From contig JAITLC010000148.1 in assembly GCA_031278095.1 (NCBI GenBank), forward strand, positions 12,602 through 76,601: a stretch of 64,000 nt of DNA, given 5' to 3'. This stretch comes from Treponema sp. (GTDB taxonomy: Bacteria > Spirochaetota > Spirochaetia > Treponematales > Breznakiellaceae). Made by a program: the position numbers and the translations under genes. Under the pieces are notes generated by a model. It was not told the origin of the DNA and did not search any database. It saw nothing but the letters and a program-made list of their open reading frames with translations. This document shows, in pieces, positions 3,358 through 26,637 of the stretch (positions are counted from its first letter, which is position 1; the number at the start of each line of letters is the position of its first letter).

Positions 3358-3422
3358 ATATACAGTATATCGATAAAAAGGTTCCTTGCCAATGAGGTTT
3401 CATCGTGTTAGGATTAAAAGAT

Positions 3423-4514
3423 ATGGGACCGGGGAAAGGACTTTTGTATTTTGCTCTGTTTTTTATAAGTTTTGTCATTATCTTTGCGGGCTGCCGGCCG
3501 GCGGAAAATCCGTGCAGGAACAAAGCCGGCGTTTCGTCACATCCCTATTATCTCGAAGTATCTTCCGGGCAGCGGGAGATCTTTGAGAATCTGTTCAGAC
3601 TCCTTTCGGAAAAAGACGGGGTTGGGGAAGACGTATTTGTCATTGTCCGTGAGATTGCCAATAACTATATCCGCATCAGGGAATACAGCAAGCTTATCAA
3701 CTTTCTTTCCGAAAGAACGGTCGAGTATCCTGATGATCCATACAACAGCTACTATCTTTTGACTATTGCCTACGCCTATCTCCAGCAGGAAGCCTACCCT
3801 GTAGCGGCCCGGTTCTTTGAGATAATTATAAAAAATTATCCGGATCTGACTGTCCGGGAAGAATCGATACACCTGGCCTGTCTCAACCAGCTTATCACCC
3901 TGGTAAATAATCCTGAACAGCGGGTCTGGTACTATCAGGAACTGATCTCCCGTTTCCCGGACAAGATTGACCTGGGGGTTTCCTACTTCATGCTTGCCCA
4001 GGCTTATGAATTGATAGGCGACTGGAACGGCGCCATCCAGGCCTATACCCAGTATCTGCCCTACATGGGCGCCGTGATTCCCGGTTTTCCCGATGCGGAT
4101 AACTATGCAAAGCAGTTGGTGGATTTCAACAATTCTCCCAAGGACTGGACTTTTGAAAACCTCAATGTGCTTTTGAATACGATACGTGCCGCGCTTGATT
4201 CGGGCTCCTCGGGGAGGCTCTGGCCTTACAGGGCCAAGGTAAATTTCTTTGCCCGTTCCTGGGAGCAGGAAGAAGCCGACGATTCGGGAATGGCGGAATT
4301 CAATCTTTCCGATTTTATGCGCGGAAACCGGATCTACTATGCCAAGGATCTTGCAGCCGGTTCCAATGCCAACGAGGCGTATCTGCGTACCTGGGGCTGG
4401 TCGCAGTATATCTCCGTCTGGTACTTCTACTTCCGCAAGATCTACTTTCCCCCGAATCCGGAGATTCACGGGCGCTGGGAATGGGCCGGGGTATACTACG
4501 GGGAGAAATTTTAA
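3423..4514 (+). CDS. Lipoprotein with TPR-like helical region, unknown function
   Basis: Signal peptide and lipobox (IIFAGC). The ATG at 3423 is preceded by AGGA, whereas the ORF-track start at 3405 is a GTG. The stop overlaps the next start (TAATG). Confidence 0.65.
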   Translation: MGPGKGLLYFALFFISFVIIFAGCRPAENPCRNKAGVSSHPYYLEVSSGQREIFENLFRLLSEKDGVGEDVFVIVREIANNYIRIREYSKLINFLSERTVEYPDDPYNSYYLLTIAYAYLQQEAYPVAARFFEIIIKNYPDLTVREESIHLACLNQLITLVNNPEQRVWYYQELISRFPDKIDLGVSYFMLAQAYELIGDWNGAIQAYTQYLPYMGAVIPGFPDADNYAKQLVDFNNSPKDWTFENLNVLLNTIRAALDSGSSGRLWPYRAKVNFFARSWEQEEADDSGMAEFNLSDFMRGNRIYYAKDLAAGSNANEAYLRTWGWSQYISVWYFYFRKIYFPPNPEIHGRWEWAGVYYGEKF

Positions 4515-5884
4515 TGCAGCGGGGGGAGAGTAAAAATAAAGTAAACACATATGGTGCGGCCGGTTTGACAGTGCTGCTGTTTCTGCTTGCAGTTTCGCTA
4601 ACGGCGGAAGAAACGGCAATAACGGACGGCAGTGACTCTGCACAGACAGGACTTCCGGCATCGCCTTATATACGGCCTTTGAGGGGGCAGTATTCTGCCG
4701 TGCCTGAAGAACTGAAAACATCTTACAGTTTTTTTACCTCTTCCCACTCCCTAAGTCTTTTTTATGATGAGGATAACGAACTGTATCAGCGCTATCTGAA
4801 ACAGTACACGTCCAAAGGCGGGAAGGAATGGCTTGAAGCCGTCATGAAACGCGCCGAACCCTACATCCCATTTATCCGTGAAGAAATTGAAAAAAGAGGG
4901 CTGCCCCCCGAACTGCTCTGCCTTCCGGTGGTTGAATCGGGTTACTCGGCAAAGGCCCGCAGCCGTTCGGGCGCCGTGGGGCTCTGGCAGTTCATGAAGA
5001 ACAGTATTTCTCCCTTTGATATGAAGGTGAATGAATGGGTGGACGAGAGACGGGATTTCTGGAAATCTACCGACGGAGCCCTGCGGAAACTGGAAGAAAA
5101 CTACAACTACTTTGGAGACTGGGCGCTGGCTCTGGCTGCCTACAATGCGGGCCTGGGGGCCGTAAGCCGGACGGTCAAACAGACCGGGATCGGCGACTAC
5201 TGGGAACTTTCCCGGCAGAAAAAGCTGAAGACGGAAACAATACACTATGTGCCGAAACTTTTGGCAGTGTCCCGTATACTCTTCAATCCCCGGCAGTACG
5301 GCATGGAACCTGTATGGCCCGGCAACTACCAATGGGTACGCATTCCCGTAGGACGGGCTGCAAGCCTCTCCCTCCTGGCCTCCGAAGCCGGAATGGATCA
5401 GGCTCTCCTGTTTATGGCAAACCAGGAACTTGAAACCGGCGTTACTCCCATTGATAAAAACTACCTTCTAAAGGTTCCCGCAAAAGATGCTGACAGTATC
5501 ACTGCGGTATTGGCCCGGAAGGACGTTGACCTTGTAAAGTACTACTCCCACACGATCCGTTCCGGGGACACCCTGCTGGCCCTGGCTCTCCATTACGGGG
5601 TATCGGTGAATCAGATTGAGGACATGAATCCGGGTATACAACCGAGATACCTCAGGATAGGGCGGCGGATCATAATCCCTGCGTTTAAGGAAGTGGGGCC
5701 CTACCGGCACAGGGCTGCTGCAGAGGAAAGAGCCTTTAGCGGGAATCATCTTGTCAAGAAAGGCGAATCCCTCTGGTCAATTGCGCTGGCCTACGATGTA
5801 GACCCGGAACTTTTGGCGGAAGCCAACAGTATGAGCATGGATTCCATTCTCGGGGAAGGCCGGAATCTGAAGGTACCGCAGTAA
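4514..5884 (+). CDS. Membrane-bound lytic murein transglycosylase with two LysM domains (MltD-like)
   Basis: SLT catalytic motif (VVESGYS...GAVGLWQFM, AYNAG), plus two C-terminal LysM-like repeats (HTIRSGDTLLALALHYGVSVNQIEDMNP and HLVKKGESLWSIALAYDVDPELLAEANS). The N-terminal signal/TM segment follows the ATG at 4514. Confidence 0.85.
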   Translation: MQRGESKNKVNTYGAAGLTVLLFLLAVSLTAEETAITDGSDSAQTGLPASPYIRPLRGQYSAVPEELKTSYSFFTSSHSLSLFYDEDNELYQRYLKQYTSKGGKEWLEAVMKRAEPYIPFIREEIEKRGLPPELLCLPVVESGYSAKARSRSGAVGLWQFMKNSISPFDMKVNEWVDERRDFWKSTDGALRKLEENYNYFGDWALALAAYNAGLGAVSRTVKQTGIGDYWELSRQKKLKTETIHYVPKLLAVSRILFNPRQYGMEPVWPGNYQWVRIPVGRAASLSLLASEAGMDQALLFMANQELETGVTPIDKNYLLKVPAKDADSITAVLARKDVDLVKYYSHTIRSGDTLLALALHYGVSVNQIEDMNPGIQPRYLRIGRRIIIPAFKEVGPYRHRAAAEERAFSGNHLVKKGESLWSIALAYDVDPELLAEANSMSMDSILGEGRNLKVPQ

Positions 5885-5898
5885 ATGAGGATTAAACT

Positions 5899-6801
5899 AT
5901 GAAACAGAGGAGGAGGAATTTTTTTTGGGGCAGTCTTTTTTCTCTGTGTGCCGTTCTGGTTTTTCCCCTGCCGGGAGAGGATATCGCCATAAGCGGGGGA
6001 ATTGCCTGGGAAAGTATGGAGATGAATGCAACGGTTTCCCTGAATCTGGCTTCCGCGGGACTGAAATTCCCCAACGGCAGGGTACAGGGTGAAGAACATA
6101 TCAGGGCCGCCTATCCCTCACTGATACAGTCCCTGCTTTCGGATATTCCGGTAGATTCTTCCCGGACTGTTGGAGATTTTATAAAGAGCGGCGGCTTGAG
6201 CATGGAGGCCCTTACAAATTTCGCTGCGGCGGCTTCCCTCTCTACTCCTGTCTTTTCTCCGGATCTGCTTTTACTCAGGGCCCCTTATACCCTAAAGCTT
6301 TCCGATCTGGGAGCCATGCTTCCGGGAAGCAGCCGTCCTGCAGAGATACTGCGCACCGTTGGTTCAAATCCTTCACCCGATTACACGGGCATCATCATCA
6401 TCGTTTCAAAACAGCTTCCCGCCCACGGCATGCGCAGCGCATACCTTGCCCGTCCCTGCATCTTTCCCAAAATCTGGGACACGGAAATGAATCTGATATT
6501 TGAAAAGAACATGCTCAAATCAGGACACTCAGGCCCGGTAGTCCGTTATGCAAAAGAGAGGGATATATTTCTTTCCACTCCTTCGGGCTTGAGTGAAGAA
6601 CTTGTCTCCCTGGCAGGGGAAAGGCCTCTGAGGATCATCGCACGGGAAATTTTCGGAAAGAGGCCTACAGACCCGGTTATCGACAGGGAAGACGCGCTGC
6701 TCATCACCGGGAATGAAAGAAACCGTGAACTGCTCCGGGAAGGCAAGGTAGTATTTGTGCTGGCGGATGAAGTTCTCAATGAAGCGCCTGGCGGCAATTA
6801 A
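5899..6801 (+). CDS. Secreted hypothetical protein
   Basis: 300 aa with GAGGA before the ATG and an N-terminal signal peptide (FFWGSLFSLCAVLVFPL). No motif recognised. Confidence 0.6.
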   Translation: MKQRRRNFFWGSLFSLCAVLVFPLPGEDIAISGGIAWESMEMNATVSLNLASAGLKFPNGRVQGEEHIRAAYPSLIQSLLSDIPVDSSRTVGDFIKSGGLSMEALTNFAAAASLSTPVFSPDLLLLRAPYTLKLSDLGAMLPGSSRPAEILRTVGSNPSPDYTGIIIIVSKQLPAHGMRSAYLARPCIFPKIWDTEMNLIFEKNMLKSGHSGPVVRYAKERDIFLSTPSGLSEELVSLAGERPLRIIAREIFGKRPTDPVIDREDALLITGNERNRELLREGKVVFVLADEVLNEAPGGN

Positions 6802-6828
6802 CGGCCCCGGGGACTCCAATGCCGGAAA

Positions 6829-9786
6829 ATGCCCATGGATAAAAATGAAGTCAAGATCCTGGATTTTCCATTCTTTTGCCTGAATTACAGTAATGGTGTT
6901 TTTATCCGTGCTCTTCCTCCCGGCGCAGAGGATCTGGGGGGCGGCGTGTTCCGTAATGAGGGTTCCGTGTACAGTCTGCCGGAAGGACTTGGCGCCGGCT
7001 GTCTTTCCAAAAAAGAGATTGGGGGAAAGACGCTGCTGGCCCTGGCCCGGAGGAGTCCGCACCCGCTTGTGGCAAAAGGCCCCCTCATGGCGTCTCCCGA
7101 AAAGAGGCTCATGGGGCTGGACTTGGAAATTCCCGGGGCCGGACGCAAAACTTCTGCGGGAGGAGAAAGCGCTCTTGTAATAAGAGTGCAAAGGGAAATT
7201 GTTCCGCGGAAGGACTGGCTGCCCCTGGAAGGGCTGTCCCGTTACTATCTTTATCATGATGAAATTTATGAAATAATCGATGATGAAACTCTGGATACGC
7301 TTGTTGCCGAATATGGCTCCGGCGGGAAACTGATACTCCGCGGAGAGGAGATCCCCCGCTTTGCCGATGAAAAGATGCGGCTGATCATCTGTTTCGGAGA
7401 CAGGGCCCTGAAACAAAAACTTTCAGAAGACGCACTTTTTATCAGGGCAGAGGAACTGTCGCTGGTGCTTTCGGTCAGGGGGGAGCCGGGGAAAGGAAGA
7501 AGAACAATACGGGGAATACCGATCCTGGCCTGGGGCAGGGATACGGATTGCAGGCACTACGATGCGGCGGAGGTATCCGCCGCCTGTGACAGAGACTATG
7601 TGCTTCTCGATGAAAAATGGGCCCGCCGGAAAGATCTTGAAAAAACGGGCCTCAATCCCCTCGGGCGCTATGCGGGAGGCGAACCAATTGAAGGCATCAG
7701 TATCCCTGTTCCCCTCCTCTTCCGGCGGGGAGAAGTGCCGCCTTACTTCAGCAGGCTTGAGTACCAGGGTCCTCCCTGGCTTGACAGGGCCGAAAAGGCC
7801 GCAATTTTTTTAGCCCACCTGGACTTTCTCCGTTTCTGGGGAATTTCAGGCGGGGTGATCCACTCAGGGTGCGGCAGGGCTGAACCGGCGGCTCTCTTGG
7901 CGCGATGGCTGCAGAACATGGGAACTGCGGGAAAACACGGTTCTACGGAAACATGTGCGGGAAAAATCATTGTCCTTATGGAAAGGAATTTTTGGGAACT
8001 CTATTTCAGTATTTCTGCCTCGGGCCTCCCCTCTCCCCTTGAAGGAGAGGATCTTTTAAGTTCACGGAACAAGGGTGTCTGTACCGGTTTTTATGAATCT
8101 CTGCCGCCGCCTTCCAACAGTCTTGTGAGCAGCTGCGATACCCTGATTCTGTTTGAACCGGAACATACGGCCGGGAATTACATGGAAAGACTGGGCGGCA
8201 TAGACTCAAGGATCGTGCTGGGTATCTCTCTGGAGGAACCGGGAGAAGAAACCCTGCGGCGGTTTTTTAGCGTAAAGGGAGAAAGAGCCGGGCTGGGCAG
8301 ATGGATCTACCGGAATACCGGAGCGGTCCTGTCCCTGCCCCGCTTCTACCAGGCGCCGGCAAGGGAAATTCTCCGGCCTCCGTTCGGGGGGCGTTTTACG
8401 GCAGACGCCAAATTCCGCAGTATTCCTGCCCCCGAACTCGCAGAAGAAGGCGCATTCTTTTATGCGGAAGGCACAGGGGATTATGATCCGCAAGCCTCTG
8501 TCAGAACAAAATTCGTTTTCGGGGAACTTTTGGAAAAAGAAAAGAACAATTTTTTCCGCTGGCGGTATCTCTTCAGGAACGGAATACGGAAACCTGCGGG
8601 AAGGGCCTTTATCCTCATCTATGCGAGAGAACTCTGCCTTGCCATGGGAAACATGGGGCCCTTTGAAGCCTTCGCGGAGCTGTCCCGGCTGCAGGAATAC
8701 TGCGTATGGCTGGAAAGTTTTTCAGGAAAAAGGCAGGATTTACAGGAAACGGCGGAACAGCCGCTCATCTCCCGTCTGCTTCTGCAGCGACTCTTTGATT
8801 TTAGCATCATGTACGGAATTACATCCCGGACTCTTCCGCTTGTTCTTTCAAGAGCCGCCGGAAGCGGGGATTATCTTATACAGGATCTTTTGATTCACAA
8901 AAAGTACATTGAAAAAAACAACAGTATCGCTTTTGAAGATATAAATCCTTTTATCGGCGATCTTTTGCAGGGCAACAGTTTTTATGTTTTTTACGGAAAA
9001 GAACTGGAAAAGGCCATTGAAAAAGTTATCAATCTTATCGACCACAGGCTCCGGGATCTCTGCAAAAAGCGGCTTTTTGAATTTTTTTTTCCGGTTCAGA
9101 CATACCGTGAAAGCCGCAGGGCCTTTGCGGGCATGGAAGCCGCCGGTTACTCTTCCTACACTGCCGAGTGGGCCCACTTTCTCGCATTCAAGCCGCTTCA
9201 TAAATTTATTTCTTCAGTTTTCCGTTATACCGAATACAGGCTGAAAATAAAAACAGGCTTTGAAAAACCGCGGCAGACGCCCCGCCTGGAGGAATACTGG
9301 CGTCTCATGGCCGACGCCGCTCTAAATGACACCGCCCTTCCCATGCACATAGGGCCCGGTTCCGTAAAACTGCGTCATGAATCAATCGAAAGACTCCGCT
9401 CCGAATCTGATGAGGTAAAACAGCTTTTGCTGATTGAAGAAAATCCTGTCCCGGACCGTGCGACAAAGCCTAACCATGCGCCGTCTCCGCCCGGATTGAA
9501 AAAGACTGAAAAAAAACAGCCCGGCATCAATGCTTTTATCGGTGGACTGAACGAGACGGAACGGAAAGCCCTGTTCTGCATTGCCGCTGTAAAAGATCCA
9601 TCCTCACTAAAGACTGAGCTTAAAGAGACAGCGGCCGCGGGATTCTCCATGCCGGAACTGCTTATCGACAGCATCAATGAAAAGTTCATGGATGCCTTTG
9701 GGGATCTATTGATTGAACACGGAAAAGACGGACCATGTATTACAGAAGAATACCGGGAGAGGCTGCCGCCGGCCGGAGAATCTTAA
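6829..9786 (+). CDS. TerB-N / TerB-C domain protein with long uncharacterised N-terminal extension (SngA-like)
   Basis: 985 aa. Residues from about 560 to 780 look like TerB-N (NFFRWRYLFRNG...RAFILIYARELCL). The C-terminal ~80 aa look like TerB-C (GLNETERKAL...MPELLIDSINEKFMDAFGDLLIE). It is the first gene of a tightly spaced three-gene set. Confidence 0.7.
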   Translation: MPMDKNEVKILDFPFFCLNYSNGVFIRALPPGAEDLGGGVFRNEGSVYSLPEGLGAGCLSKKEIGGKTLLALARRSPHPLVAKGPLMASPEKRLMGLDLEIPGAGRKTSAGGESALVIRVQREIVPRKDWLPLEGLSRYYLYHDEIYEIIDDETLDTLVAEYGSGGKLILRGEEIPRFADEKMRLIICFGDRALKQKLSEDALFIRAEELSLVLSVRGEPGKGRRTIRGIPILAWGRDTDCRHYDAAEVSAACDRDYVLLDEKWARRKDLEKTGLNPLGRYAGGEPIEGISIPVPLLFRRGEVPPYFSRLEYQGPPWLDRAEKAAIFLAHLDFLRFWGISGGVIHSGCGRAEPAALLARWLQNMGTAGKHGSTETCAGKIIVLMERNFWELYFSISASGLPSPLEGEDLLSSRNKGVCTGFYESLPPPSNSLVSSCDTLILFEPEHTAGNYMERLGGIDSRIVLGISLEEPGEETLRRFFSVKGERAGLGRWIYRNTGAVLSLPRFYQAPAREILRPPFGGRFTADAKFRSIPAPELAEEGAFFYAEGTGDYDPQASVRTKFVFGELLEKEKNNFFRWRYLFRNGIRKPAGRAFILIYARELCLAMGNMGPFEAFAELSRLQEYCVWLESFSGKRQDLQETAEQPLISRLLLQRLFDFSIMYGITSRTLPLVLSRAAGSGDYLIQDLLIHKKYIEKNNSIAFEDINPFIGDLLQGNSFYVFYGKELEKAIEKVINLIDHRLRDLCKKRLFEFFFPVQTYRESRRAFAGMEAAGYSSYTAEWAHFLAFKPLHKFISSVFRYTEYRLKIKTGFEKPRQTPRLEEYWRLMADAALNDTALPMHIGPGSVKLRHESIERLRSESDEVKQLLLIEENPVPDRATKPNHAPSPPGLKKTEKKQPGINAFIGGLNETERKALFCIAAVKDPSSLKTELKETAAAGFSMPELLIDSINEKFMDAFGDLLIEHGKDGPCITEEYRERLPPAGES

Positions 9787-9818
9787 CAAAGGCCCGGCAT
9801 TCAGACTATACTTAAAAC

Positions 9819-11114
9819 ATGCTCAGCTTTCCCAGACGCATAAGCTCGGCGATTCTCTCCTCCCTTTCTGCAGGGGTGGTACCCCGTGTGGGACTCGAAT
9901 ACATTGCCGTTGGACGCAAACGGGAAGTGGAAGCCAGCCTGGAGGATCTTGAAAATATTGCAGGAGGAGCCGCTGCCTTTAGAATTGTTGCGGGACGTTA
10001 CGGCAGCGGGAAAAGTTTCTTCCTCCAGGCGATCCGCAACTATGCGCTGGAACAGGGATTCATCACTGCCGATGCGGATCTTTCACCCGAGAAACGTCTT
10101 GCCGGGCCTGCAGGACTTGAAACTTACCGGGAACTCCTCCAGCGTCTTGCATCCAAGGCCCGGCCCGAAGGCGGCGCGCTGGAAGGCCTGCTGCAAAAAT
10201 GGATCAACTCGATCAAGCTTTCATTCATTCAGGACGGCTACGGGGCCAACGATCCGGATCTGCCCAAACTGGTGGAAACACGGATCTATGAAACGGTCAG
10301 CGAAATGGAAGACCTTTCCCACGGTTTTGACTTTGCGCGCGTATTAAGCGCCTACTATCTGGCCTACACAAACAGTGTTGATGAAAAAAAAGAAGCCGCC
10401 CTCCGCTGGCTCAGGGGAGAGTATGCGACGAAAACCGAAGCAAAAGCCCTGTTGGGAACCGGGGAGATCATCACCGGGGAAAACTGGTATGACTACATCA
10501 AGCTTCTTGCCGCCTTCAGTTTCCGTTCAGGCAGCAAGGGGCTGTTACTCTTTATTGATGAATGTACCCAACTGGCAAAAATCGGCAGCCGCCAGTCGCG
10601 GGAGAATAACTACGAAAAACTGCTGGCTCTCTTCAACGATGTAATGCAGGGAAAGGCTGAACGGCTGGGCATCTATCTTGCAGGTACTCCCCAGTTTATT
10701 GAAGATGACAGACGAGGACTCTTCAGCTACCAGGCTCTGAAAAGCCGTCTTGCGGAAAGCCGCTTTGCCCGTGAAGGCTACATCGATTATTCAGGCCCTG
10801 TGCTGCGGCTTTCCCAGTTGAGCCAGGAAGAGATCTATGTATTGCTGGAACGGCTCAGGGATATTCATGCCTTTCACCATGCCTATGAAAGCGAATTGGG
10901 GAACAGGGAACTTTCAATCTTCCTGGAACAGGCTTTTTCAAAAGCCGGGGCGGAAGAATTTATCACTCCCAGGGAAATTGCCAGGGATTTTCTCGGCCTT
11001 CTCAATATCACCCGCAATGAAAATTTAAACTTTGACGATCTTGTATACCGGAACGGCTACCGGGTTGAAGGCTATAAACCCGGCGGCAGCTTCTATGCCG
11101 GCTTTGAAGTATAG
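9819..11114 (+). CDS. DUF2791 / BrxD-type P-loop ATPase (SngB-like)
   Basis: 431 aa. The N-terminus (AILSSLSAGVVPRVGLEYIAVGRKREV) is typical of DUF2791. Walker A is GRYGSGKSFF and Walker B is LLLFIDEC. It starts 32 nt after the upstream gene. Confidence 0.75.
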   Translation: MLSFPRRISSAILSSLSAGVVPRVGLEYIAVGRKREVEASLEDLENIAGGAAAFRIVAGRYGSGKSFFLQAIRNYALEQGFITADADLSPEKRLAGPAGLETYRELLQRLASKARPEGGALEGLLQKWINSIKLSFIQDGYGANDPDLPKLVETRIYETVSEMEDLSHGFDFARVLSAYYLAYTNSVDEKKEAALRWLRGEYATKTEAKALLGTGEIITGENWYDYIKLLAAFSFRSGSKGLLLFIDECTQLAKIGSRQSRENNYEKLLALFNDVMQGKAERLGIYLAGTPQFIEDDRRGLFSYQALKSRLAESRFAREGYIDYSGPVLRLSQLSQEEIYVLLERLRDIHAFHHAYESELGNRELSIFLEQAFSKAGAEEFITPREIARDFLGLLNITRNENLNFDDLVYRNGYRVEGYKPGGSFYAGFEV

Positions 11115-11117
11115 GAT

Positions 11118-13295
11118 ATGAACCGGGTCTACGAACGGCTGCACCCTGTTGTACGGGAGTATATCTACAATCAGGAATGGGAAGGCCTGCGGCCTGTACA
11201 GGAAGCGGCGGCAACCGGGATCCTTGAACAGGAGAGCCACCTCATCATTGCCGCAGGCACCGCATCGGGAAAGACCGAGGCCTGTTTCTTTCCGATAATA
11301 TCACTACTGGCGGAGAAACGCCGCGATTCTGTAGGAGCCCTGTACGTAAGCCCCCTCAAGGCCCTTATCAATGATCAGTTCGGCCGTCTTGAAGGTCTGG
11401 CCCGTGAGGCGGAAATTCCTCTCTGGCGCTGGCACGGAGACATACCGGGCCGGCACAAGGAAAAGCTTTTGGAGAACCCCGCAGGGATACTGCAGATAAC
11501 GCCTGAATCTCTGGAAGCGCTGTTACTGCGGCGGCCCCGCAGGATTGCTTCTCTCTTCCGGGAACTTTCCTTTGTAGTCATTGATGAGGTACATGCCTTT
11601 ATGGGAACCGGAAGGGGGCAGCAGCTTCTCTGTCAGCTTGTCAGGATCGAGAGAACCCTGGGGAACCTTTCCTCTTCGTTTCCCAGGCGCATAGGGCTTT
11701 CCGCCACCCTGGCCGACTACCGCAGGGCAATGGAATGGATAGCAAGGGGGAGCCGGCTTGGAAGAGAGACGACCCTCATCGAAGAAAAGAAAAGCAGGCG
11801 CCGTGTACGCATTGCCCTTGACTACTTTTCCCGGAGCAAAGGTGAAGAACAGAATTACTACCAATCCCTCTACAGGGAGACCAGGGGAAAACGCTGCATA
11901 ATTTTTACCAACAGCCGTCTTGACGCGGAAGAGACAGCCGGGGCATTGAGATCCATCGATGGAGGGGAGAACCGTTTTCTTATCCACCATGGCAGTATCT
12001 CTGCCGCGCTCCGGGGAGAGGCGGAAAAGGAACTGCGCGAGGCGGCAGGGTCTGTAACACTGACAGCGACGGCAACACTTGAGATGGGGATCGATATAGG
12101 CGCCCTGGACAGGGTTATCCAGCTTGGGCCTCCCCTTTCCGTGTCGGCCTTTGTCCAGCGGCTGGGGCGTTCGGGAAGACGAAGAGGGACAAGCGAGATC
12201 TACTTCAGCAGCCTTGACGACAGTAATGATACGCTTGATATGCCCTGGACGCTGTTAAAGACCATCGCCGTGATAGAACTTTATATTAGAGAAAAATGGA
12301 TTGAGGATCGCCCGGAGCCTCCCCTGCCCTACAGCCTCCTTATCCACGAAAGCCTCTCCCTCATCGCCTCCGAAGGAGAGAAGAAGGCAGAGGTTCTGGA
12401 GGAAGAAGTCCTGAGCCTTCCCGGTTTTGAGCAGGTGAACGGAGAAGATTACCGCCGGATTCTTGAAGCCCTCATCCATGCGGGGCTTCTGGAACAGACC
12501 GCCGAAGGAACCCTGATCACCGGCCTTGAGGGGGAAAGGATCACGGGTCACTACAGTTTCTACTCGGTTTTTTCAAGCGACACCGAGTACCGGGTGATTC
12601 ACGGCGCGATGGAGATAGGAAAGGTAAACTTTGCCCCGCCGCCGGGAAGCGGCATTATTCTTGGAAGCCGCTACTGGCGGGTGCTCCGCTCGGATCAGAG
12701 GCAGAGGGAGATCGGTGTGGAGCCGGGAACCGAAGGCGCCCTGCGGCTCTGGCGGGGCGGCAGTGCGGAAAACCACCCGCGGGTTTCGGCAAAGATACTG
12801 GAGATCCTCCTCTCGCAGGAATCGTACACATATCTTTCGGCCGGCGCCGCAAAACGCCTTAGAGAAGCCAGAAACACTACGGAGAATTTTGGGTTTGACG
12901 GGAAGGGCTGGAGCCTTATCGAAACAGGCGGAGATTCACGGAGGCCTTATACCAGCTTCCGCATACTTCCGTGGCTGGGAAGCCGGGGCATGAGGACGCT
13001 GCTCCTCATCCTCCGGGATGAAGATCTGTCCATTGTTCTGGGCATTATCGCCCTCTCGCGGGAAAGCGATTACAGCATCTTTGTAAGTTCAAAACTTCCC
13101 CTTCAGATCTTCCGTGAAAACCTCTTCAGGATCATCGAAAACCTGAATTCCGCCTCTCTTGAAACTCTGGCGGAAAAATCTGTGGATACCATCCCGTGCA
13201 CGGGAAAATTCGATCCCTGGCTTCCCCCCTCCCTGCTGGCAAAGCAGTATACGGCAAACATGCTGGATCCGGAAGAATTGAAGGGGAGCGTTTAG
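11118..13295 (+). CDS. Lhr-like DEAD/DEAH-box helicase (SngC-like)
   Basis: 725 aa. Motif I is AAGTASGKTEA. It also has the TPESLE motif shared with Lhr, motif II DEVH, motif III SAT and motif VI QRLGRSGRR. It starts 3 nt after the ATPase stop. Confidence 0.85.
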   Translation: MNRVYERLHPVVREYIYNQEWEGLRPVQEAAATGILEQESHLIIAAGTASGKTEACFFPIISLLAEKRRDSVGALYVSPLKALINDQFGRLEGLAREAEIPLWRWHGDIPGRHKEKLLENPAGILQITPESLEALLLRRPRRIASLFRELSFVVIDEVHAFMGTGRGQQLLCQLVRIERTLGNLSSSFPRRIGLSATLADYRRAMEWIARGSRLGRETTLIEEKKSRRRVRIALDYFSRSKGEEQNYYQSLYRETRGKRCIIFTNSRLDAEETAGALRSIDGGENRFLIHHGSISAALRGEAEKELREAAGSVTLTATATLEMGIDIGALDRVIQLGPPLSVSAFVQRLGRSGRRRGTSEIYFSSLDDSNDTLDMPWTLLKTIAVIELYIREKWIEDRPEPPLPYSLLIHESLSLIASEGEKKAEVLEEEVLSLPGFEQVNGEDYRRILEALIHAGLLEQTAEGTLITGLEGERITGHYSFYSVFSSDTEYRVIHGAMEIGKVNFAPPPGSGIILGSRYWRVLRSDQRQREIGVEPGTEGALRLWRGGSAENHPRVSAKILEILLSQESYTYLSAGAAKRLREARNTTENFGFDGKGWSLIETGGDSRRPYTSFRILPWLGSRGMRTLLLILRDEDLSIVLGIIALSRESDYSIFVSSKLPLQIFRENLFRIIENLNSASLETLAEKSVDTIPCTGKFDPWLPPSLLAKQYTANMLDPEELKGSV

Positions 13296-20364: not shown

Positions 20365-21258
20365 ATGTTAAATTGCTGTCCAGCCCTTGTCTTTTTGTTG
20401 TCATTTTGTTATAATGAAAGTAGTTTGAAAGAAAACAGCTTGGAAAATACGGAAACACGGCCTCTGCCGGCTAAAAATCATAAGTGGCATATTCTCAGCG
20501 GCAACGGTATTAAGATTATCGGGGTGATCCTGATGGCTATGGACCATCTCCACCAGATGTTCACTGCCCAGGGGGCTCCGGCCTGGCTTAGCTGGTTCGG
20601 CAGGCCCGTGGCTGTGATGTTTGTATTCCTCTGCGCCGAAGGTTTTCACTATACCCGGAATAAAAAACGGTATATGCTGCAACTGCTCATCGGGTTTCTG
20701 TTCATGTCGGTGATGAACAGGTTGTTGACCGTTCTGATACCCCTTGAAGACATAATGCTGATCAATAACATCTTCAGCGCCCTGCTAATGGCGGTCTTTT
20801 ATATGGCGATGATCGATTTACTCCGCCGGGGGCTGAGGGAAAAGAAGGCGGGGACTGTGGCGCTTGCTGCCGGGGGAATGCTCCTGCCTCTGCTGGCGGG
20901 CCTGGCTTTTGTTGCCGCCCTGATGACCGGAAATTTAACCGCCGTCGAGATTCTGACATTCGTTCCCAATCCCATAACTGCGGAAGGCGGACTGTTCATG
21001 GTCGGTATGGGAATCCTTTTTTATGTGCTGAGGAAACACCGTTTGGCCCAGATTGGGGCGGTGTTGATCGTGAGCATCTTCTCCTGGTACACCGGAAAAG
21101 ACCCGGCGGCGGGGAATTATCAATGGCTCATGGTGTTTGCGGTAATTCCCATGTTCCTGTACAACGGAACGCGCGGCCGGGGAAGTAAGTACTTTTTCTA
21201 CGTTTTTTATCCCGCCCATATATACCTTTTCTATATCGTTGCGCGGCTTATCCGCTGA
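20365..21258 (+). CDS. TraX-family membrane protein
   Basis: Polytopic membrane protein with the TraX-like N-terminal motif LSGNGIKIIGVILMAMDHL. The true start is uncertain; the first ~30 aa of the ORF may not be translated. Confidence 0.7.
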   Translation: MLNCCPALVFLLSFCYNESSLKENSLENTETRPLPAKNHKWHILSGNGIKIIGVILMAMDHLHQMFTAQGAPAWLSWFGRPVAVMFVFLCAEGFHYTRNKKRYMLQLLIGFLFMSVMNRLLTVLIPLEDIMLINNIFSALLMAVFYMAMIDLLRRGLREKKAGTVALAAGGMLLPLLAGLAFVAALMTGNLTAVEILTFVPNPITAEGGLFMVGMGILFYVLRKHRLAQIGAVLIVSIFSWYTGKDPAAGNYQWLMVFAVIPMFLYNGTRGRGSKYFFYVFYPAHIYLFYIVARLIR

Positions 21259-21439: not shown

Positions 21440-23305
21440 ATGAAAAAAGGAATGTTGCTACCCTTAAAAACTGAATCGGCCATGAAACGAAGTTTCATAC
21501 TGGCAGCGGGGATTGTCTCCGTAATCTTCTTCGCATGCTCAAAAGAAGAAGAATACTCGGCGGAAGAATTTGAGGCTCTGGGCTCCCGGGGGATACACGA
21601 AATTCTGGAAAAGACGGTGAGCAAGCCCTGGCGGGGGGAAGAGTTCGTTCCCGGTACGGTGAAGGGAACATGGAATTCGGTGGCGCGGGCCGACCCGAAG
21701 AGTTTCAATCTGCTGATTGCCGAAAAGGATACTCCTACCGCCACCGTAACGGGCGCCATGACCGACTATTTTATTGATTACGATACCGAAAAACGGGAAT
21801 GGAAGGCCCGTGCGGCGTTCTTTGAAGTGATTGCCGATGAGGAAAACGATACGCTCAAGGTTATCTATACTCTTCGGGACAATCTCTACTGGAGCTACTA
21901 TAATTCAAGCCGGAAGATCCCGGTTACAAGCGATGACGTGATCTTCTGGTACAATGAAATTTCAGGCGATCCGGAGTGTCAGAGTTCCGCTTACTATCAG
22001 CAGTTCCTTGTCATGAGCGACGGCAGCGAAGCTCATGTTGACATCGAAAAGATCAGCGACAAGAAATTCTCTTTCAATTTCCCGCGCATTGTAGCGGAAC
22101 CTTTGCTTACCACGAATATGGACTTTGGTCCGGCCCACATCTACAAGAAAGCCAAGGATGAAGGCGGTGTACAGGCAGTTCTTGATCTTCACAGTGTTGC
22201 CGTTGATCCGAAAACAATTCCCTCCATGGGCGAGTGGTTTCTTACCGAATACATTCCCGGCCAGCGTCTGGTGTACAAACGGAATCCCGATTACTGGAAT
22301 GTTGATACGGCCGGAACTTCAATCCCCTATGTCGAAGAGTATATCGTTCAGATAATTCCCGATGAAAATACGCAAAAGCTTATCTTTATGGAAGGGAGAA
22401 CCGAATCCTACTTCCTGCGGCCCGAAGATCTTGACGAAATGGTCAACAGGCAGGAAGCCGGTTCTTATACGGTTTTCAATGCGGAAGGAAGTCTGGGCGC
22501 CTCATACTGGACTTTCAACCAGAATCCCGTTCACTCAGGCAGTCCTAAATACAACTGGTTTACAAAAAAAGAATTCCGTCAGGCGATGAGCTGTCTTCTC
22601 AACCGGGAGCGGATCATAAGCCAGGTGTACCGGGGTCTTGCCGAACCAAAGCTTGATTTTTTCCCGGAACCGAATCCTTTCTACAATCCCGAAATAAAAC
22701 TCAAGTATATCTATGATCAGAAAAAGGCCCTTGCGCTTCTTGAGTCCGCAGGTTTCAAGCGGGATTCAGAGGGCGTTTTGCGGGACGATGCGGGTAACGC
22801 AGTTGAGTTTGATCTTACCATACGTTCCGAAAGTACGATAATGTCCGATATTGCTTCTATTATAATGGATGAACTTGACGGTCAGGGGATCAGGGTAAAT
22901 ATCCGGGTGCTGGATTTCCAGAAACTGGTTGAACAGCTCTTCAGTACTTTTGAATGGGACTCCATGCTGATGGGGCTCTCCGGTTCAAACATCTTTCCGT
23001 CCCAGGGCAGCAATGTCTGGCCTTCTTCGGGGAATCTGCACATGTGGTATCCCAATCAGAAAAAGCCCGCCACTGCCTGGGAAGCGCGGATTGATTATCT
23101 TTATAACGAAGGTTCCTATACTATCGACGAAGAAAAAGCCCGTACAATATGGAACGAGTATCAGGAGATCATTCTGGAAGAGATGCCGGTTATTTCTCTT
23201 CTCCGTTCAAGGAACTTCTGGGCCTTGCGGAACCGCTGGGACTTTACCAATGTGTATTTTGACAATATCAACAGTGCAGAAACGAGCCACATCTTTTTGA
23301 AATGA
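21440..23305 (+). CDS. ABC transporter substrate-binding lipoprotein, family 5 (peptide/nickel, OppA/YejA-like)
   Basis: About 620 aa with a lipobox (VIFFACS) and family-5 SBP length and organisation. An alternative start at 21482 (MKRSFILAAG...) gives a cleaner signal peptide. Confidence 0.8.
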   Translation: MKKGMLLPLKTESAMKRSFILAAGIVSVIFFACSKEEEYSAEEFEALGSRGIHEILEKTVSKPWRGEEFVPGTVKGTWNSVARADPKSFNLLIAEKDTPTATVTGAMTDYFIDYDTEKREWKARAAFFEVIADEENDTLKVIYTLRDNLYWSYYNSSRKIPVTSDDVIFWYNEISGDPECQSSAYYQQFLVMSDGSEAHVDIEKISDKKFSFNFPRIVAEPLLTTNMDFGPAHIYKKAKDEGGVQAVLDLHSVAVDPKTIPSMGEWFLTEYIPGQRLVYKRNPDYWNVDTAGTSIPYVEEYIVQIIPDENTQKLIFMEGRTESYFLRPEDLDEMVNRQEAGSYTVFNAEGSLGASYWTFNQNPVHSGSPKYNWFTKKEFRQAMSCLLNRERIISQVYRGLAEPKLDFFPEPNPFYNPEIKLKYIYDQKKALALLESAGFKRDSEGVLRDDAGNAVEFDLTIRSESTIMSDIASIIMDELDGQGIRVNIRVLDFQKLVEQLFSTFEWDSMLMGLSGSNIFPSQGSNVWPSSGNLHMWYPNQKKPATAWEARIDYLYNEGSYTIDEEKARTIWNEYQEIILEEMPVISLLRSRNFWALRNRWDFTNVYFDNINSAETSHIFLK

Positions 23306-24384
23306 AAAACCCGGCGGAGGCAATAGCCTTAATCTTTTCTCCGTTTCACAAATTCAAACGCAGGGCGCCTCTTTTGGCCTATGTCACCGGGCGTTTCTGT
23401 ATCATGCTGGTGATGCTTTTCCTTCTGGGCTTTGCGGTCTTCGGCCTCATGGAACTTGCTCCGGGCGACATTGTGGATCAGATCATGATGCAGCAGCTCT
23501 TCGATGAAAGTCAGGGAAGGGCCGGGGTAAACCGGGAAGCGATGAACATGGATCAGCTTGCCGCCCAGCGTGCATATCTGGGTCTCGATCAGCCTTTCTA
23601 CATTCAATACTTCAAATGGCTTGAGCGTCTTGTCATTCATCATGATCTTGGAGTAAGCCTGATCAGCCGTGCGCCTGTTTCTTTCCTGATTGCAAGCCGG
23701 CTTCCCAATTCTCTGCTGCTCAATATCATTTCCTTGCTGCTCATTACGTTCTTTTCTTTTTTATTGGGAGTTTATTTTTCCACCAAGGCCGGAACTAGGG
23801 CCGATCTTGCGGTAACGTTTTTTGCGCTTGTACTTCACGCGTTCCCCGGTATTCTTCTGCTGATTCTGCTCCAGCTTTTTGCAAGTCTTACCGGTCTCTT
23901 CCCGGTTACCGCGTATCCCGATTTTTCTTTTTCCGAAGCACCGGGGCGTTTTGTATTTTCCTATGCGCACCACATTTTTCTTCCACTGCTTGCCGCATTC
24001 CTGGGAGGAATCGGCGGAACCCTGAGGATGATCCGGGCTACCATGCTTGATCAGTTGGGGCAACCGTACATTACAAGCCTGCGGAGCCGGGGCATTGCCG
24101 AATGGCGGATCTACTTTAACCATGCGTTCCGCAACATCTTGAATCCCTACATCACCGGAAGTGCAAATCTTCTTGCAGGTTTGTTTTCAGGTTCACTGAT
24201 CCTCGAAATAATCTTTGCGTATCCGGGAATCGGAAGGCTCATGTATGAAGCCGTACTGCAGGAAGACATCAACCTCGTGCTTACCAATATCATGTTCATT
24301 TCATTCCTCGTTCTGGTGGGAATGGTTCTTGCGGACATTCTGCTTGCGCTGGTTGATCCGCGGATCAGATACGGGAAAGGATGA
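23302..24384 (+). CDS. Peptide ABC transporter permease (OppB/DppB/YejB-like)
   Basis: 360 aa with 6 TM segments and a long first periplasmic loop, as in DppB/YejB. Its start overlaps the upstream stop. Confidence 0.8.
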   Translation: MKNPAEAIALIFSPFHKFKRRAPLLAYVTGRFCIMLVMLFLLGFAVFGLMELAPGDIVDQIMMQQLFDESQGRAGVNREAMNMDQLAAQRAYLGLDQPFYIQYFKWLERLVIHHDLGVSLISRAPVSFLIASRLPNSLLLNIISLLLITFFSFLLGVYFSTKAGTRADLAVTFFALVLHAFPGILLLILLQLFASLTGLFPVTAYPDFSFSEAPGRFVFSYAHHIFLPLLAAFLGGIGGTLRMIRATMLDQLGQPYITSLRSRGIAEWRIYFNHAFRNILNPYITGSANLLAGLFSGSLILEIIFAYPGIGRLMYEAVLQEDINLVLTNIMFISFLVLVGMVLADILLALVDPRIRYGKG

Positions 24385-26636
24385 TGAAAAAGTTTTTTAT
24401 CTATTTGAGAACACGGCCGCTTGGAATGATTTCATTTGCGGCGCTGTTGCTGCTTTATTTCTTCATGATCTTTGCCGAGTTTTTTGCGCCCTACGCTCCG
24501 ACTTCTTCCTTTGCCGACAAAACATACCATCCGCCGAATCTGCGATTCTATCAGGGGCGGCTTCAGGCACAGGAATGGCGCGTGAGCAATTCGGTATCGT
24601 GGAAGTATGTGCGGATACGGGCAAGTTACGAAAAGGTCCGTCTTTTCGGAAAGGGCGAGCCTTACAAGTTGTTAGGGTTTGTTCCCATGGAGCGGCATTT
24701 CTTCACCACGGATAAGGGCGCATATCCTGTTTTCCTTATGGGAGCGGACAACCTGGGACGGGATGTTTTTTCCAGGATCATTTACGGTTCCCGAATCTCG
24801 CTGACAATCGGTTTTGTGGCAACCGCAATCTCTCTTGTTTTGGCGGTTCTCCTCGGCGGACTTGCAGGTTACTTCGGCGGATTTACCGACTGGTCGATCA
24901 TGCGGGCCTGCGAATTCTTCATGTTGATTCCCGGCCTCTATCTCATTCTCTTTCTCCGTTCGCTTTTATCCAGCAGTATGGATTCAGGCCAGGCCTACAT
25001 GATGATCACGGTTATTCTGTCGCTGGTCGGTTGGCCCGGTTCTGCAAGAACTTTCCGGGGTATGATACACGCCATCAAACGGGAAGAATTTGTCATGAAT
25101 TCACGCCTTGAAATGATTCCTTCAATGGTGATCATAAGCCGGGACATTATTCCGCAGATTGCGAGTCTATTAATTGTAAGTGTTGCGCTTTCCATTCCCG
25201 GCTTCATCATGACCGAGACAACCCTTTCCTATCTGGGGCTGGGCATCACCGATCCCGCGGTAAGCTGGGGTTCCATGATCAAGCGGGACATTTCTACTTT
25301 GAACAATCTGCGGAATTACTCATGGCTCTTAAATCCCGTCTGGTTTCTTCTGGGAGTAACTCTTGCCTTCAACTTCCTTGGGGACTGTCTCCGCGATTTT
25401 TTTGATCCTTACCATACGCACAGCTTTGGATTGCGGTTCTGGATTCCTGATTTTCTCAAAGAAAGAAAGATCAAAAAACCGGGCTTGTTTCAAAACTCAG
25501 GTTCTTTCGGAACCAGGATCAAATCCAAGGCTGCCGTTTCAGAATTTGACATTTTGGAACGGCTTCAATTAAATTCTGAAAATAAAAGTGAGGTTCCCGG
25601 ACTTTCGTTGTCCGGAGAGGATCCTCACCCTGCGGGTTCGGCGGAGGGTTCCGGATCGCCTGTATTGCTGGAAGTAAGGGATCTTGCCGTAAGCTTCGGC
25701 ATATTGCAGGGTAGATCCGCCGTTATGGTACATGCCGTGCGCGGGCTTTCATTCCTGTTGAAGCGGGGAGAGATTCTGGGCATTGTAGGTGAATCCGGTT
25801 CCGGAAAGAGTGTAAGCACCCAGGCCATACCCGGTCTCCTGCCTGTAAATACGGAAATCTCAGGCTCAATCTGCTTTGAAAATTTTGAACTGCTCGGAAA
25901 GGATGTTGAAACCCTGAGGCAATACCGGGGAAAGAAGATTGGTGTGATCTATCAGGAGCCGGGGCGTTCCTACGATCCTCTGCAGAATATAGGGAATGTG
26001 TTTCTGGAAACGTTCAGGAACAAGGAGCCTGCAATTGAAAGAGAAGCCGCTCTGGAAAAGGCCGCCGCCCTGCTTGCGGAAGTCGGGCTCAATGACGGCA
26101 GGGAGAGACTGGGGAATTTTCCACATCAGTTTTCCGGCGGACAGCTTCAGCGTATCGGCATTGCATTGTCCCTTGCACAGGGCTGCGAACTCTTAATCGC
26201 CGATGAACCTACCACCGCTCTGGATGTAACCATACAGAAGCAGATCGTCACCCTGCTCAGAACCCTGCGGGAAGAACGGGGGATCTCTATCATCTTTATC
26301 AGCCATGACATAGATCTTGTTGCGGAAATTTCAGACCGTATCATGGTGATGTACGGCGGTCTTGAGATGGAAGCAGGGGATGCGGAAGAGATACGCTCTG
26401 CGCCGCGGCATCCCTATACCTGCTCTCTCCTTGCGGCCTCTCCGCGTTTCGGAAGCCACTATTCAAAGGAGCGCCTGAAAACAATCCCCGGCAAGGTAGC
26501 AGATCCGGTAAGGCCGGAACCCGGCTGCCCCTTTGCACCCCGCTGCGGTGAAGCGCAGCCTGAATGCAGTAACGGCATTCCTCAATTGCGGAATGTTGAT
26601 TCCCGTGAAATCCGCTGCATTGGTATGAGGCTTTGA
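24381..26636 (+). CDS. Fused peptide ABC transporter permease (OppC-like) and ATP-binding domain (OppD-like)
   Basis: A single uninterrupted 751-aa frame. Residues 1-340 form an OppC/YejE-like permease (GADNLGRDVFSRIIYG). A roughly 90-aa linker follows. The rest is an ABC ATPase with GESGSGKS, LSGGQLQRIGIALSL and LIADEPTTALD, plus an oligopeptide-type C-terminal extension. Confidence 0.8.
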   Translation: MMKKFFIYLRTRPLGMISFAALLLLYFFMIFAEFFAPYAPTSSFADKTYHPPNLRFYQGRLQAQEWRVSNSVSWKYVRIRASYEKVRLFGKGEPYKLLGFVPMERHFFTTDKGAYPVFLMGADNLGRDVFSRIIYGSRISLTIGFVATAISLVLAVLLGGLAGYFGGFTDWSIMRACEFFMLIPGLYLILFLRSLLSSSMDSGQAYMMITVILSLVGWPGSARTFRGMIHAIKREEFVMNSRLEMIPSMVIISRDIIPQIASLLIVSVALSIPGFIMTETTLSYLGLGITDPAVSWGSMIKRDISTLNNLRNYSWLLNPVWFLLGVTLAFNFLGDCLRDFFDPYHTHSFGLRFWIPDFLKERKIKKPGLFQNSGSFGTRIKSKAAVSEFDILERLQLNSENKSEVPGLSLSGEDPHPAGSAEGSGSPVLLEVRDLAVSFGILQGRSAVMVHAVRGLSFLLKRGEILGIVGESGSGKSVSTQAIPGLLPVNTEISGSICFENFELLGKDVETLRQYRGKKIGVIYQEPGRSYDPLQNIGNVFLETFRNKEPAIEREAALEKAAALLAEVGLNDGRERLGNFPHQFSGGQLQRIGIALSLAQGCELLIADEPTTALDVTIQKQIVTLLRTLREERGISIIFISHDIDLVAEISDRIMVMYGGLEMEAGDAEEIRSAPRHPYTCSLLAASPRFGSHYSKERLKTIPGKVADPVRPEPGCPFAPRCGEAQPECSNGIPQLRNVDSREIRCIGMRL

Positions 26637-26637
26637 T

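Follow-up and report, generated by a model that had tools for sequence, protein, structure and literature searches.

A very probable Shango (SngABC) homolog with a long-form SngA in Treponema sp.

What is the three-gene cassette that lies among envelope and metabolic genes on a Treponema sp. contig, and does it defend its host? The cassette occupies positions 6829 to 13295 of the stretch analysed here (the window: 64,000 nucleotides, positions 12,602 to 76,601 of contig JAITLC010000148.1, assembly GCA_031278095.1). An earlier note, made from the letters of the window, had proposed it as a candidate anti-phage cassette of the Shango type, composed of the following open reading frames (ORFs).

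6829..9786, plus strand: sngA, long form, 985 amino acids (ORF; PADLOC SngA, 1.2e-38)
9819..11114, plus strand: sngB, BrxD/DUF2791-type AAA+ ATPase, 431 amino acids (Pfam BrxC_BrxD, PADLOC SngB)
11118..13295, plus strand: sngC, superfamily 2 (SF2) helicase of the SngC/BrxHI clade, 725 amino acids (PADLOC SngC, Pfam)

The three ORFs were found adjacent and co-oriented, with gaps of 32 nucleotides between sngA and sngB and 3 nucleotides between sngB and sngC, exactly as the note had described them, and the GC content of the cassette (0.50-0.54) was the same as that of the flanks. For each of the three proteins the best PADLOC match was the Shango model, and the genes stand in the canonical Shango order and adjacency. 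Hence the proposed Shango-type triad held up, and the profile check that had been suggested, using Pfam and PADLOC, detected TerB_C, DUF2791/BrxC_BrxD, DEAD and Helicase_C. Given the SngA, SngB and SngC profile matches together with these Pfam domains, the cassette is almost certainly a Shango (SngABC) homolog.

SngB matched Pfam BrxC_BrxD (PF10923, DUF2791) at 2e-144 and the PADLOC SngB model over nearly its full length at 8.4e-159, as against 3.5e-48 for BrxD; with the NCBIfam BREX_BrxD equivalog it reached 166 bits, below the cut-off of 350. The motifs quoted in the note for all three genes were each located at a defined residue, and those of SngB were GRYGSGKS at residue 59 (Walker A, G62-S-G-K65-S) and LLLFIDEC at residue 242 (Walker B, D247-E248). 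Gene 2 had thus been read correctly as a P-loop ATPase of the DUF2791/BrxD type with Walker A and B intact. A search of PDB sequences with SngB returned nothing.

SngC matched the PADLOC SngC model at 2.7e-201 over residues 3-722 and BrxHI at 1.5e-123, as well as Pfam DEAD (3e-26) and Helicase_C (3.1e-16). Its motifs were GTASGKTE at residue 47 (motif I), TPESLE at 128, DEVH at 156 (motif II) and QRLGRSGRR at 347 (motif VI). The closest solved relatives were Mycobacterium smegmatis Lhr (5v9x, 7lhl) and Bacillus subtilis MrfA/YprA (6znp); accordingly, the description of gene 3 as an Lhr-like SF2 helicase is right for the motor core. Unlike Lhr, SngC showed no WH_Lhr, DEAD_assoc or WH4_Lhr domain in the Pfam scan, and it fell far below the cut-offs of the NCBIfam equivalogs for Lhr-type and ligase-associated helicases. 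The window itself encodes a full-length Lhr of 1489 amino acids (27630-32099, plus strand) with DEAD, Helicase_C and all three of these additional domains, so that the housekeeping Lhr and its paralog SngC stand 14 kb apart in one genome. Because a separate, genuine Lhr is encoded, SngC is not the housekeeping Lhr. A published analysis groups SngC with BrxHI, DruE and DpdJ within a clade of SF2 helicases associated with defence (PMC12278908).

We also observed that the deposited SngB has only 408 amino acids in three Treponema metagenome-assembled genomes (MAGs; L002:13042-14334, L003:10472-11764, L004:7287-8579). With tblastn, an identity of 95-96% was found in these loci over all 431 SngB residues. 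Since the first 23 residues are included in this conservation, the deposited starts were probably called too far downstream.

SngA proved to be the unusual member of the triad. With moderate confidence, in part from a predicted structure, we divide it into four parts.

6829..7728, plus strand: residues 1-300, N-terminal domain of mixed alpha/beta fold, assigned to no family (AlphaFold2, pLDDT about 85-92 over residues 10-210; dN/dS 0.36)
7729..8463, plus strand: residues 301-545, SNF2-like RecA lobe 1, predicted to be catalytically dead (Foldseek; motif loss)
8515..9264, plus strand: residues 563-812, TerB_N-like region (BLASTP to Paenibacillus SngA; PADLOC coverage)
9361..9765, plus strand: residues 845-979, TerB_C domain (Pfam PF15615, 4.6e-17)

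The PADLOC SngA match covered residues 544-979, the C-terminal 436 residues, against model positions 89-523 of 528. In the C-terminal 40% the earlier note had read a TerB-N followed by a TerB-C, and the motifs on which it relied are present: RWRYLFRNG at residue 577, AFILIYARELCL at 593 and MPELLIDSINEKFMDAFGDLLIE at 941. TerB_C was confirmed directly by Pfam, and residues 870-975 align with the TerB_C of the Paenibacillus plasmid SngA. By contrast, Pfam TerB_N (PF13208) gave no match on the window SngA even at E<=10, and the support for this part is indirect. Residues 563-812 align (BLASTP, E=5e-9) to a region of the 573-amino-acid Paenibacillus SngA that overlaps its Pfam TerB_N; in the family alignments the window segment falls on the TerB_N of Pfam-positive relatives; and PF13208 was found at the equivalent position in all 12 scanned relatives that were reached through the N-terminal module. 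These results support, indirectly, a divergent TerB_N in the window SngA. A true TerB domain (PF05099) was not found in it by Pfam, nor was a transmembrane segment.

The AlphaFold2 model of the TerB_N/TerB_C half had a pLDDT of 76 and was mostly helical, with TerB_C forming four helices and a beta-hairpin. Foldseek on TerB_C returned weak winged-helix-like matches over the last ~75 residues (E about 2, probability up to 0.75). Because these matches are only weak, we do not claim an effector fold for SngA. The PDB sequence search with the C-terminal half returned nothing. With regard to the start of the gene, the sngA ORF begins with M-P-M-D, and in the alignment the first residue of the closest homologs (MDKN...) stands opposite Met3; the real start may therefore be Met3 at 6835 and not 6829.

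The description of gene 1 had passed over a separate, conserved N-terminal module of 545 residues. Residues 1-545 make up 55% of the protein, and up to residue 543 they lie outside the PADLOC SngA match. They contain many invariant columns across homologs of 30-40% identity, and their dN/dS (the ratio of nonsynonymous to synonymous substitution rates) was 0.33-0.36 against five close relatives, similar to the rest of SngA. The module is conserved and under purifying selection. It is also rare: HMMER found it in only 82 proteins at E<=1e-3 among 1.84 billion cluster representatives. The 12 module carriers scanned with Pfam (760-1250 amino acids) were without exception TerB_N+TerB_C proteins, full-length long-form SngA homologs measure 920-1250 amino acids, and the carriers that bear a name come from Treponema, Spirochaetia and Spirochaetaceae MAGs and from an Acidobacteriia/Terriglobia MAG.

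Residues 1-560 gave no Pfam, NCBIfam or PDB-sequence match, either alone or as a 10-sequence profile; the link to SNF2 described below is consequently a structural one only. An AlphaFold2 model of these residues, built from a 10-sequence alignment, had a mean pLDDT of 68. It was confident (pLDDT 82-92) for residues 10-210 and about 250-270 and moderate (pLDDT 60-85) for an alpha/beta domain at residues ~330-480. When the model was compared with the PDB by Foldseek, the first match was ZorD of type I Zorya (8qy7; E 1.2e-7, 586 co-linear columns), followed by Chd1, ISWI, Snf2, Mot1 and other SNF2 lobe-1 structures over ~170-230 columns with root-mean-square deviations of 4.5-6 A. The part that superposes on lobe 1 of Chd1, ISWI and Snf2 is residues 301-545, over about 180 columns. 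The SngA sequence still shows the helix and the 'GGV' strand found before the P-loop of SNF2 proteins, but not the catalytic residues: the Walker A GK[TS] was absent in all 27 aligned long-form family members, in each of which the SNF2 DExH position reads EP[ED]E. The second RecA lobe is absent as well, TerB_N following directly after the SNF2-like lobe. We therefore consider residues 301-545, with moderate confidence because the reading rests on predicted structure, to be an inactivated SNF2-like lobe and residues 1-300 its associated N-terminal domain. The lobe would resemble an SNF2 ATPase in fold only and would not be one, as GxGK[TS], DExH and the second lobe are missing.

Four shorter carriers (P0046, P0047, P0050 and P0052; 760-840 amino acids) have their first residue opposite residues ~206-230 of the window SngA in the alignment. 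The SNF2-like lobe seems to be present in them and the first N-terminal domain missing; this may be a genuine intermediate architecture, or short contigs may have led to truncated gene calls.

Pfam and alignments distinguished at least three forms of SngA.

Short form, 573 amino acids: TerB_N-TerB_C (Paenibacillus plasmid)
TerB-containing form, 841 amino acids: TerB_N-TerB-TerB_C (Phaeobacter plasmid, adjoining AbiE and RES-Xre genes)
Long form, 920-1250 amino acids: SNF2-like front half followed by TerB_N/TerB_C

The 841-amino-acid Phaeobacter SngA had been considered as a further bearer of the N-terminal extension; this was rejected, since it carries a true TerB (PF05099) instead. Across phyla, SngB and SngC of the long-form systems (spirochaetes, Acidobacteriia and locus L011, described below) resembled one another and their counterparts in the short Paenibacillus system to the same degree, the identities being 53-62% (SngB) and 40-50% (SngC). 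The Phaeobacter system, whose SngA contains TerB, was the outgroup (SngB 36-45%, SngC 34-36%), so that by SngB/SngC identity the window system groups with the TerB-less lineage, which includes the short Paenibacillus form. As SngB and SngC are equally related with and without the extension, the extension behaves as a facultative accessory module within one Shango lineage. This facultative nature points to regulation or sensing and away from core catalysis.

Shango as such is not new. It was reported as a three-gene anti-phage system from Escherichia coli defence islands (bioRxiv 10.1101/2022.05.11.491447; Millman et al. 2022) and independently in the core defence hotspot cDHS1 of Pseudomonas aeruginosa PA14 (PMC10250203; Johnson et al. 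2023), where it reduced plating 10-100 fold and protected liquid cultures (PMC10250203). The systems of P. aeruginosa PA14 and of E. coli are the ones for which phage protection has been demonstrated, and the spirochaete locus is known from its sequence. Two statements of the earlier note were overtaken by this literature: Shango is no longer a mere candidate, having been validated experimentally (PMC10250203; bioRxiv 10.1101/2022.05.11.491447), and a system known and validated in 2022-23 can hardly be the strongest candidate for an unusual biological system in the window. On the other hand, the statement that its mechanism and trigger are unknown agrees with the papers found. Later papers list Shango without a mechanism or repeat a 'membrane surveillance' conjecture drawn from the TerB name, and no account of a Shango mechanism or of an SNF2-like SngA turned up in our literature search.

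The locus thus adds no new system. As in the known ones, the gene for a TerB_N/TerB_C protein is closely followed by that for a DUF2791/BrxD-type ATPase and then by that for a DEAD/DEAH SF2 helicase. It differs in that the window SngA has 985 amino acids as against a 528-position model, residues 1-543 lying outside the match; in that it lacks the central TerB (PF05099) of the 841-amino-acid Phaeobacter SngA; and in that the locus is chromosomal, vertically inherited and outside any defence hotspot. What is new is modest but concrete: a rare long-SngA variant whose front half is predicted, with moderate confidence, to be an SNF2-like pseudo-ATPase, and good documentation that a defence cassette has been retained by vertical descent over a long time behind an envelope operon.

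To follow this inheritance, the genes upstream of the cassette are needed.

3405-4514, plus strand: TPR lipoprotein-like protein, TPR363 (Pfam; envelope block, not Shango)
4481-5884, plus strand: SLT/LysM lytic transglycosylase (Pfam; envelope block, not Shango)
5899-6801, plus strand: u300, exported protein of 300 amino acids with no Pfam family (envelope block, not Shango)

All three upstream products carry N-terminal hydrophobic segments or export signals. From 3405 to 13295 there are six co-directional genes, joined by one overlap and then by gaps of 14, 27, 32 and 3 nucleotides, with sngA beginning 27 nucleotides after u300; promoter and terminator scans around the cassette gave nothing above shuffled controls. 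Judged from this spacing, read-through co-transcription of u300 and sngA is likely.

The cassette was present at the same locus in all six genomes of the close clade. The order of upstream block and cassette was the same in all four close Treponema sp. MAG loci reached via the SLT gene (L005-L008, among them two that are the same as L003 and L002) and also in L004, found by way of its SngA homolog P0001; the gene after sngC differs among the close relatives. Identities to these relatives were 88-95% for the flanks, 84-86% for SngA, 95-96.5% for SngB (residues 1-431) and 90-91% for SngC. Against five relatives, dN/dS was 0.11 for sngB, the lowest of the genes tested, 0.25 for sngC and 0.33 for sngA, the fastest-evolving subunit. 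The synonymous divergence (dS) of the cassette was 0.15-0.25 and that of the flanking genes 0.18-0.28. Since dS is equal in cassette and flanks, the cassette has co-diverged with the chromosome in this clade. In the distant spirochaete loci L009 and L012, where u300 is 46-48% identical, a long sngA likewise stands right after u300.

The perfect synteny obtained via the SLT gene had suggested a core-like cassette, and this was overturned by a metagenome scan anchored on u300. The scan yielded 80 loci with u300 at 41-52% identity, most of the upstream-extending ones showing SLT. By tblastn, sngA, sngB and sngC were absent after u300 in these loci, save for one short match at a contig edge in L021; the cassette-free downstream sequence amounted to at least 1 kb in 54 loci and at least 3 kb in 30. 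Cassette-positive loci fell in at least three places on a rough neighbour-joining tree of u300. The cassette is accordingly not universal in the lineage, the 54 related spirochaete loci having the same upstream block and lacking it. The patchy distribution among relatives that the note had raised was borne out at this distance, but not in the close clade, where all six genomes have the cassette.

Elsewhere, u300 is followed by genes for an MCP, an LRR protein, SecDF, an RND efflux pump, a beta-galactosidase, a cNMP-binding protein or an SBF transporter. The idea that the site after u300 is a defence hotspot was rejected, as these downstream genes are ordinary; the 3' end of u300 is a synteny breakpoint, not a defence hotspot. 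The block of TPR, SLT-LysM and u300 genes is itself widespread in related spirochaete metagenome contigs (L009, L012 and L015-L094), and u300 has many invariant residues despite belonging to no Pfam family.

The same sngABC triad was found in L002-L004, L007, L008 and L010-L014, in some cases in quite different surroundings. In L011 (GCA_023393125.1, contig JAEWMQ010000073.1, 1-7300), the long-form SngABC lies directly downstream of mobile-island genes, namely a phage-type integrase, a SAVED + DncV-like CBASS pair, a DUF1643 protein and a DDE transposase; the region is a typical mobile defence island. In L010, an Acidobacteriia MAG, the long-form triad stands alone among unrelated genes. Furthermore, SngB homologs were found on 697 plasmids, 542 of them conjugative, and the Phaeobacter plasmid copy adjoins AbiE and RES-Xre genes. 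Overall, these sequences indicate a cassette that is accessory and mobile on long time-scales and has become stably fixed in the clade of the window.

A different arrangement was seen in L001 (JGI 3300042609, contig Ga0466722_237965, 1-14193), where an HTH_3 (Xre-type) gene precedes a long sngA and sngB and no helicase gene follows. An SngC-like helicase (43% identical, C-terminal half) lies 9 kb upstream in this contig, beside a superfamily 1 helicase of 1234 amino acids with AAA_11/AAA_30/UvrD_C_2 domains.

Is the cassette of the window, then, a working defence system? We consider it probable that it is complete and functional and that it has an accessory anti-phage or anti-mobile-element role in this organism. 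It lies at the 3' end of an envelope-biogenesis operon and has since been passed on vertically in its Treponema sp. clade. Several results weigh against this reading or the mechanism proposed below. All close relatives found carry the cassette in this same place, and the conservation of sngB exceeds that of the housekeeping flanks; fast-turnover defence genes do not typically show this pattern. In the window, the surroundings of the cassette contain no defence island, integrase, tRNA or mobile-element marker: ten flanking proteins had no PADLOC match and ordinary metabolic or envelope Pfam domains, with no integrase or transposase among them, and neither a tRNA or tmRNA (ARAGORN) nor an Rfam family at the gathering threshold was detected across the 64 kb. 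No nuclease, toxin or pore was recognisable in the cassette. The TerB_N/TerB_C half of SngA had no significant structural neighbour (AlphaFold2 and Foldseek, best E 0.85), which leaves the mechanism without direct support, and the SNF2 assignment comes from a model of mean pLDDT 68 and 10 sequences that no sequence profile supports.

The first two of these results are what would be expected of a domesticated housekeeping module, in which the cassette would work, like Lhr and MrfA, in repairing the DNA of the cell itself or in its response to stress, and not in defence. The same locus is occupied in every relative found via the flanking gene, including the distant L009 and L012; cassette and flanks have equal dS, and no tested gene has a lower dN/dS than sngB; the neighbours, which downstream of sngC are racemase, permease and hydantoinase-type genes, are ordinary metabolic and envelope genes; and among solved helicases the repair enzymes Lhr and MrfA come closest. 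We nevertheless regard this explanation, the main rival to a defence role, as unlikely. The 54 related loci with the same operon and no cassette indicate that it is dispensable in this spirochaete group, and a bona fide full-length Lhr is already present at 27630-32099. With the models of the defence clade SngC scores far better than with those that NCBIfam provides for repair helicases. Moreover, homologous triads are validated anti-phage systems (PMC10250203), and homologs occur in the CBASS/integrase island of L011 and on hundreds of conjugative plasmids.

The position behind the envelope block suggests another explanation, that the exported upstream proteins are wired to the cassette and a cell-wall breach at phage entry triggers Shango. 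The six co-directional genes with short gaps and no terminator signal above chance, the export signals on all three upstream products, and the recurrence of the arrangement in L009 and L012 despite u300 at 46-48% identity are consistent with such coupling, as is the membrane-surveillance hypothesis (10.1101/2022.05.11.491447; 10.1101/2024.10.26.620412). However, the block occurs without Shango in the 54 loci, and conversely L001, L010, L011 and plasmids have Shango but not the block; SngA has neither a transmembrane segment nor a true TerB (PF05099); and a simple insertion at the 3' end of the operon, a synteny breakpoint, explains the linkage. Taken together, these findings make a functional coupling improbable, clearly more so than a housekeeping role.

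A remnant of a type 2 BREX/Pgl locus, left with its BrxD-like and BrxHI-like genes, is effectively refuted: SngB and SngC do match BrxD (3.5e-48) and BrxHI (1.5e-123), and type 2 BREX does carry these as a linked pair (PMC12839542), but the Shango-specific models score far higher (8.4e-159 and 2.7e-201), the BREX_BrxD equivalog was missed at 166 bits against 350, the scanned flanking proteins match no PADLOC model (PglZ, PglX, BrxC and PglW covered) and have unrelated Pfam domains, and the upstream partner is the TerB_N/TerB_C protein that defines Shango. A decaying, non-functional cassette, which the undetected Pfam TerB_N and the SNF2-like lobe without catalytic motifs might suggest, is refuted by the dN/dS of 0.11-0.33 against five relatives, the three ORFs being intact in the window and in L002, L003, L004, L007, L008 and L012 and the motif loss being common to the whole long-form family across phyla, with the SNF2-like domain itself at dN/dS 0.33.

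How might an accessory defence system of this composition act? From the component identities, the intact motifs of SngB and SngC, the motifs absent from the N-terminal half of SngA, the purifying selection and the distribution, we infer, in all its steps, a possible loader-helicase-sensor mechanism, which we hold only tentatively. SngB and SngC would be the same AAA+ ATPase/Lhr-like helicase pair as the BrxD/BrxHI of type 2 BREX, where the tightly linked pair has been proposed to be a loader and a helicase (PMC12839542). In both systems, an ORC/Cdc6-like AAA+ ATPase is linked to an Lhr/Ski2-like SF2 helicase, the proteins being homologous, and by this analogy Shango and BrxD-BrxHI probably share the loader/helicase logic. 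Unlike in type 2 BREX/Pgl, the partner in the window is a TerB_N/TerB_C protein and the BrxD equivalog cut-off is missed; PglZ, PglX, BrxC and PglW had no PADLOC match among the scanned flanking proteins, and no BREX-core match was obtained in the large ORFs scanned elsewhere in the window. SngB, being ORC/Cdc6-like, would use ATP to load SngC on foreign DNA or switch it on there, and SngC would translocate and unwind foreign replication or recombination intermediates, by which phage replication would be blocked. Because no nuclease is encoded, interference would be non-degradative or would rely on host nucleases.

SngA, in which no enzymatic fold was recognisable, would be the system-specific sensor or scaffold. 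Its SNF2-like N-terminal half, having lost the ATPase motifs and the second lobe, would most plausibly serve as a passive DNA-binding or autoinhibitory platform, in a role comparable to that of the N-terminal domain of ZorD, which autoinhibits the Snf2 domain of that protein (PMC11946911). The likeness to ZorD lies in the predicted fold of SngA 1-560, for which it is the best PDB match, and in the large N-terminal domain that precedes an Snf2 domain and gates it in ZorD (PMC11946911). On the other hand, the window SngA has no detectable sequence similarity to ZorD or SNF2 proteins, no Walker A lysine, no DExH and no second RecA lobe, and no window protein scanned matched the ZorA or ZorB models. 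A front half without the ATPase motifs and the second lobe cannot be an ATP-driven translocase.

One could go further and regard the long SngA as marking a distinct Shango subtype that captured a ZorD-like front half (N-terminal domain plus RecA lobe 1), now inactivated, and uses it, independently of nucleotide, as a DNA-binding or autoinhibitory platform to gate the SngB-SngC loader-helicase pair. We put this forward as a conjecture that we think somewhat doubtful. If true, it would provide the first structural handle on target recognition by any Shango system and would illustrate how dead motor domains are reused as sensors in defence systems. More speculative still is the suggestion that Shango in these spirochaetes is transcriptionally tied to a peptidoglycan-remodelling operon and answers an envelope breach.

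These proposals bear on a widespread system: SngB relatives are found on hundreds of conjugative Klebsiella and Salmonella plasmids, and Shango is common in a P. aeruginosa defence hotspot. The long-SngA architecture is known from spirochaetes and from at least one Acidobacteriia (Terriglobia) MAG, and its module is apparently facultative. Systems with and without the module and with equally related SngB and SngC constitute a natural deletion series for SngA function, by which DNA binding, autoinhibition and a decoy function could be distinguished. In addition, the locus shows cleanly how a defence cassette has stayed in one chromosomal position, with purifying selection acting strongly on it, as six related Treponema MAGs diverged; this bears on how long defence systems persist outside islands.

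Some further features of the window should be mentioned. The full-length Lhr gene lies directly after a four-gene Opp-type oligopeptide ABC transporter (21440-27645, plus strand), with overlapping stop and start codons. PADLOC matches to mad3/mad8 and to DpdJ/BrxHI/SngC at 24381-32099 had raised a second defence locus; this was rejected, as Pfam identifies the region as the Opp transporter and Lhr, and the PADLOC matches are cross-hits. On the minus strand, an ORF of 394 amino acids (3537-4721) has no Pfam or PADLOC match and overlaps almost all of TPR363. It is most likely spurious, because it overlaps a conserved gene on the opposite strand. Finally, a gene for a TraX-family protein (20365-21258, plus strand; a weak match, 9e-15) lies between the hydantoinase-type cluster and the Opp transporter, and no other conjugation gene was noticed near it.

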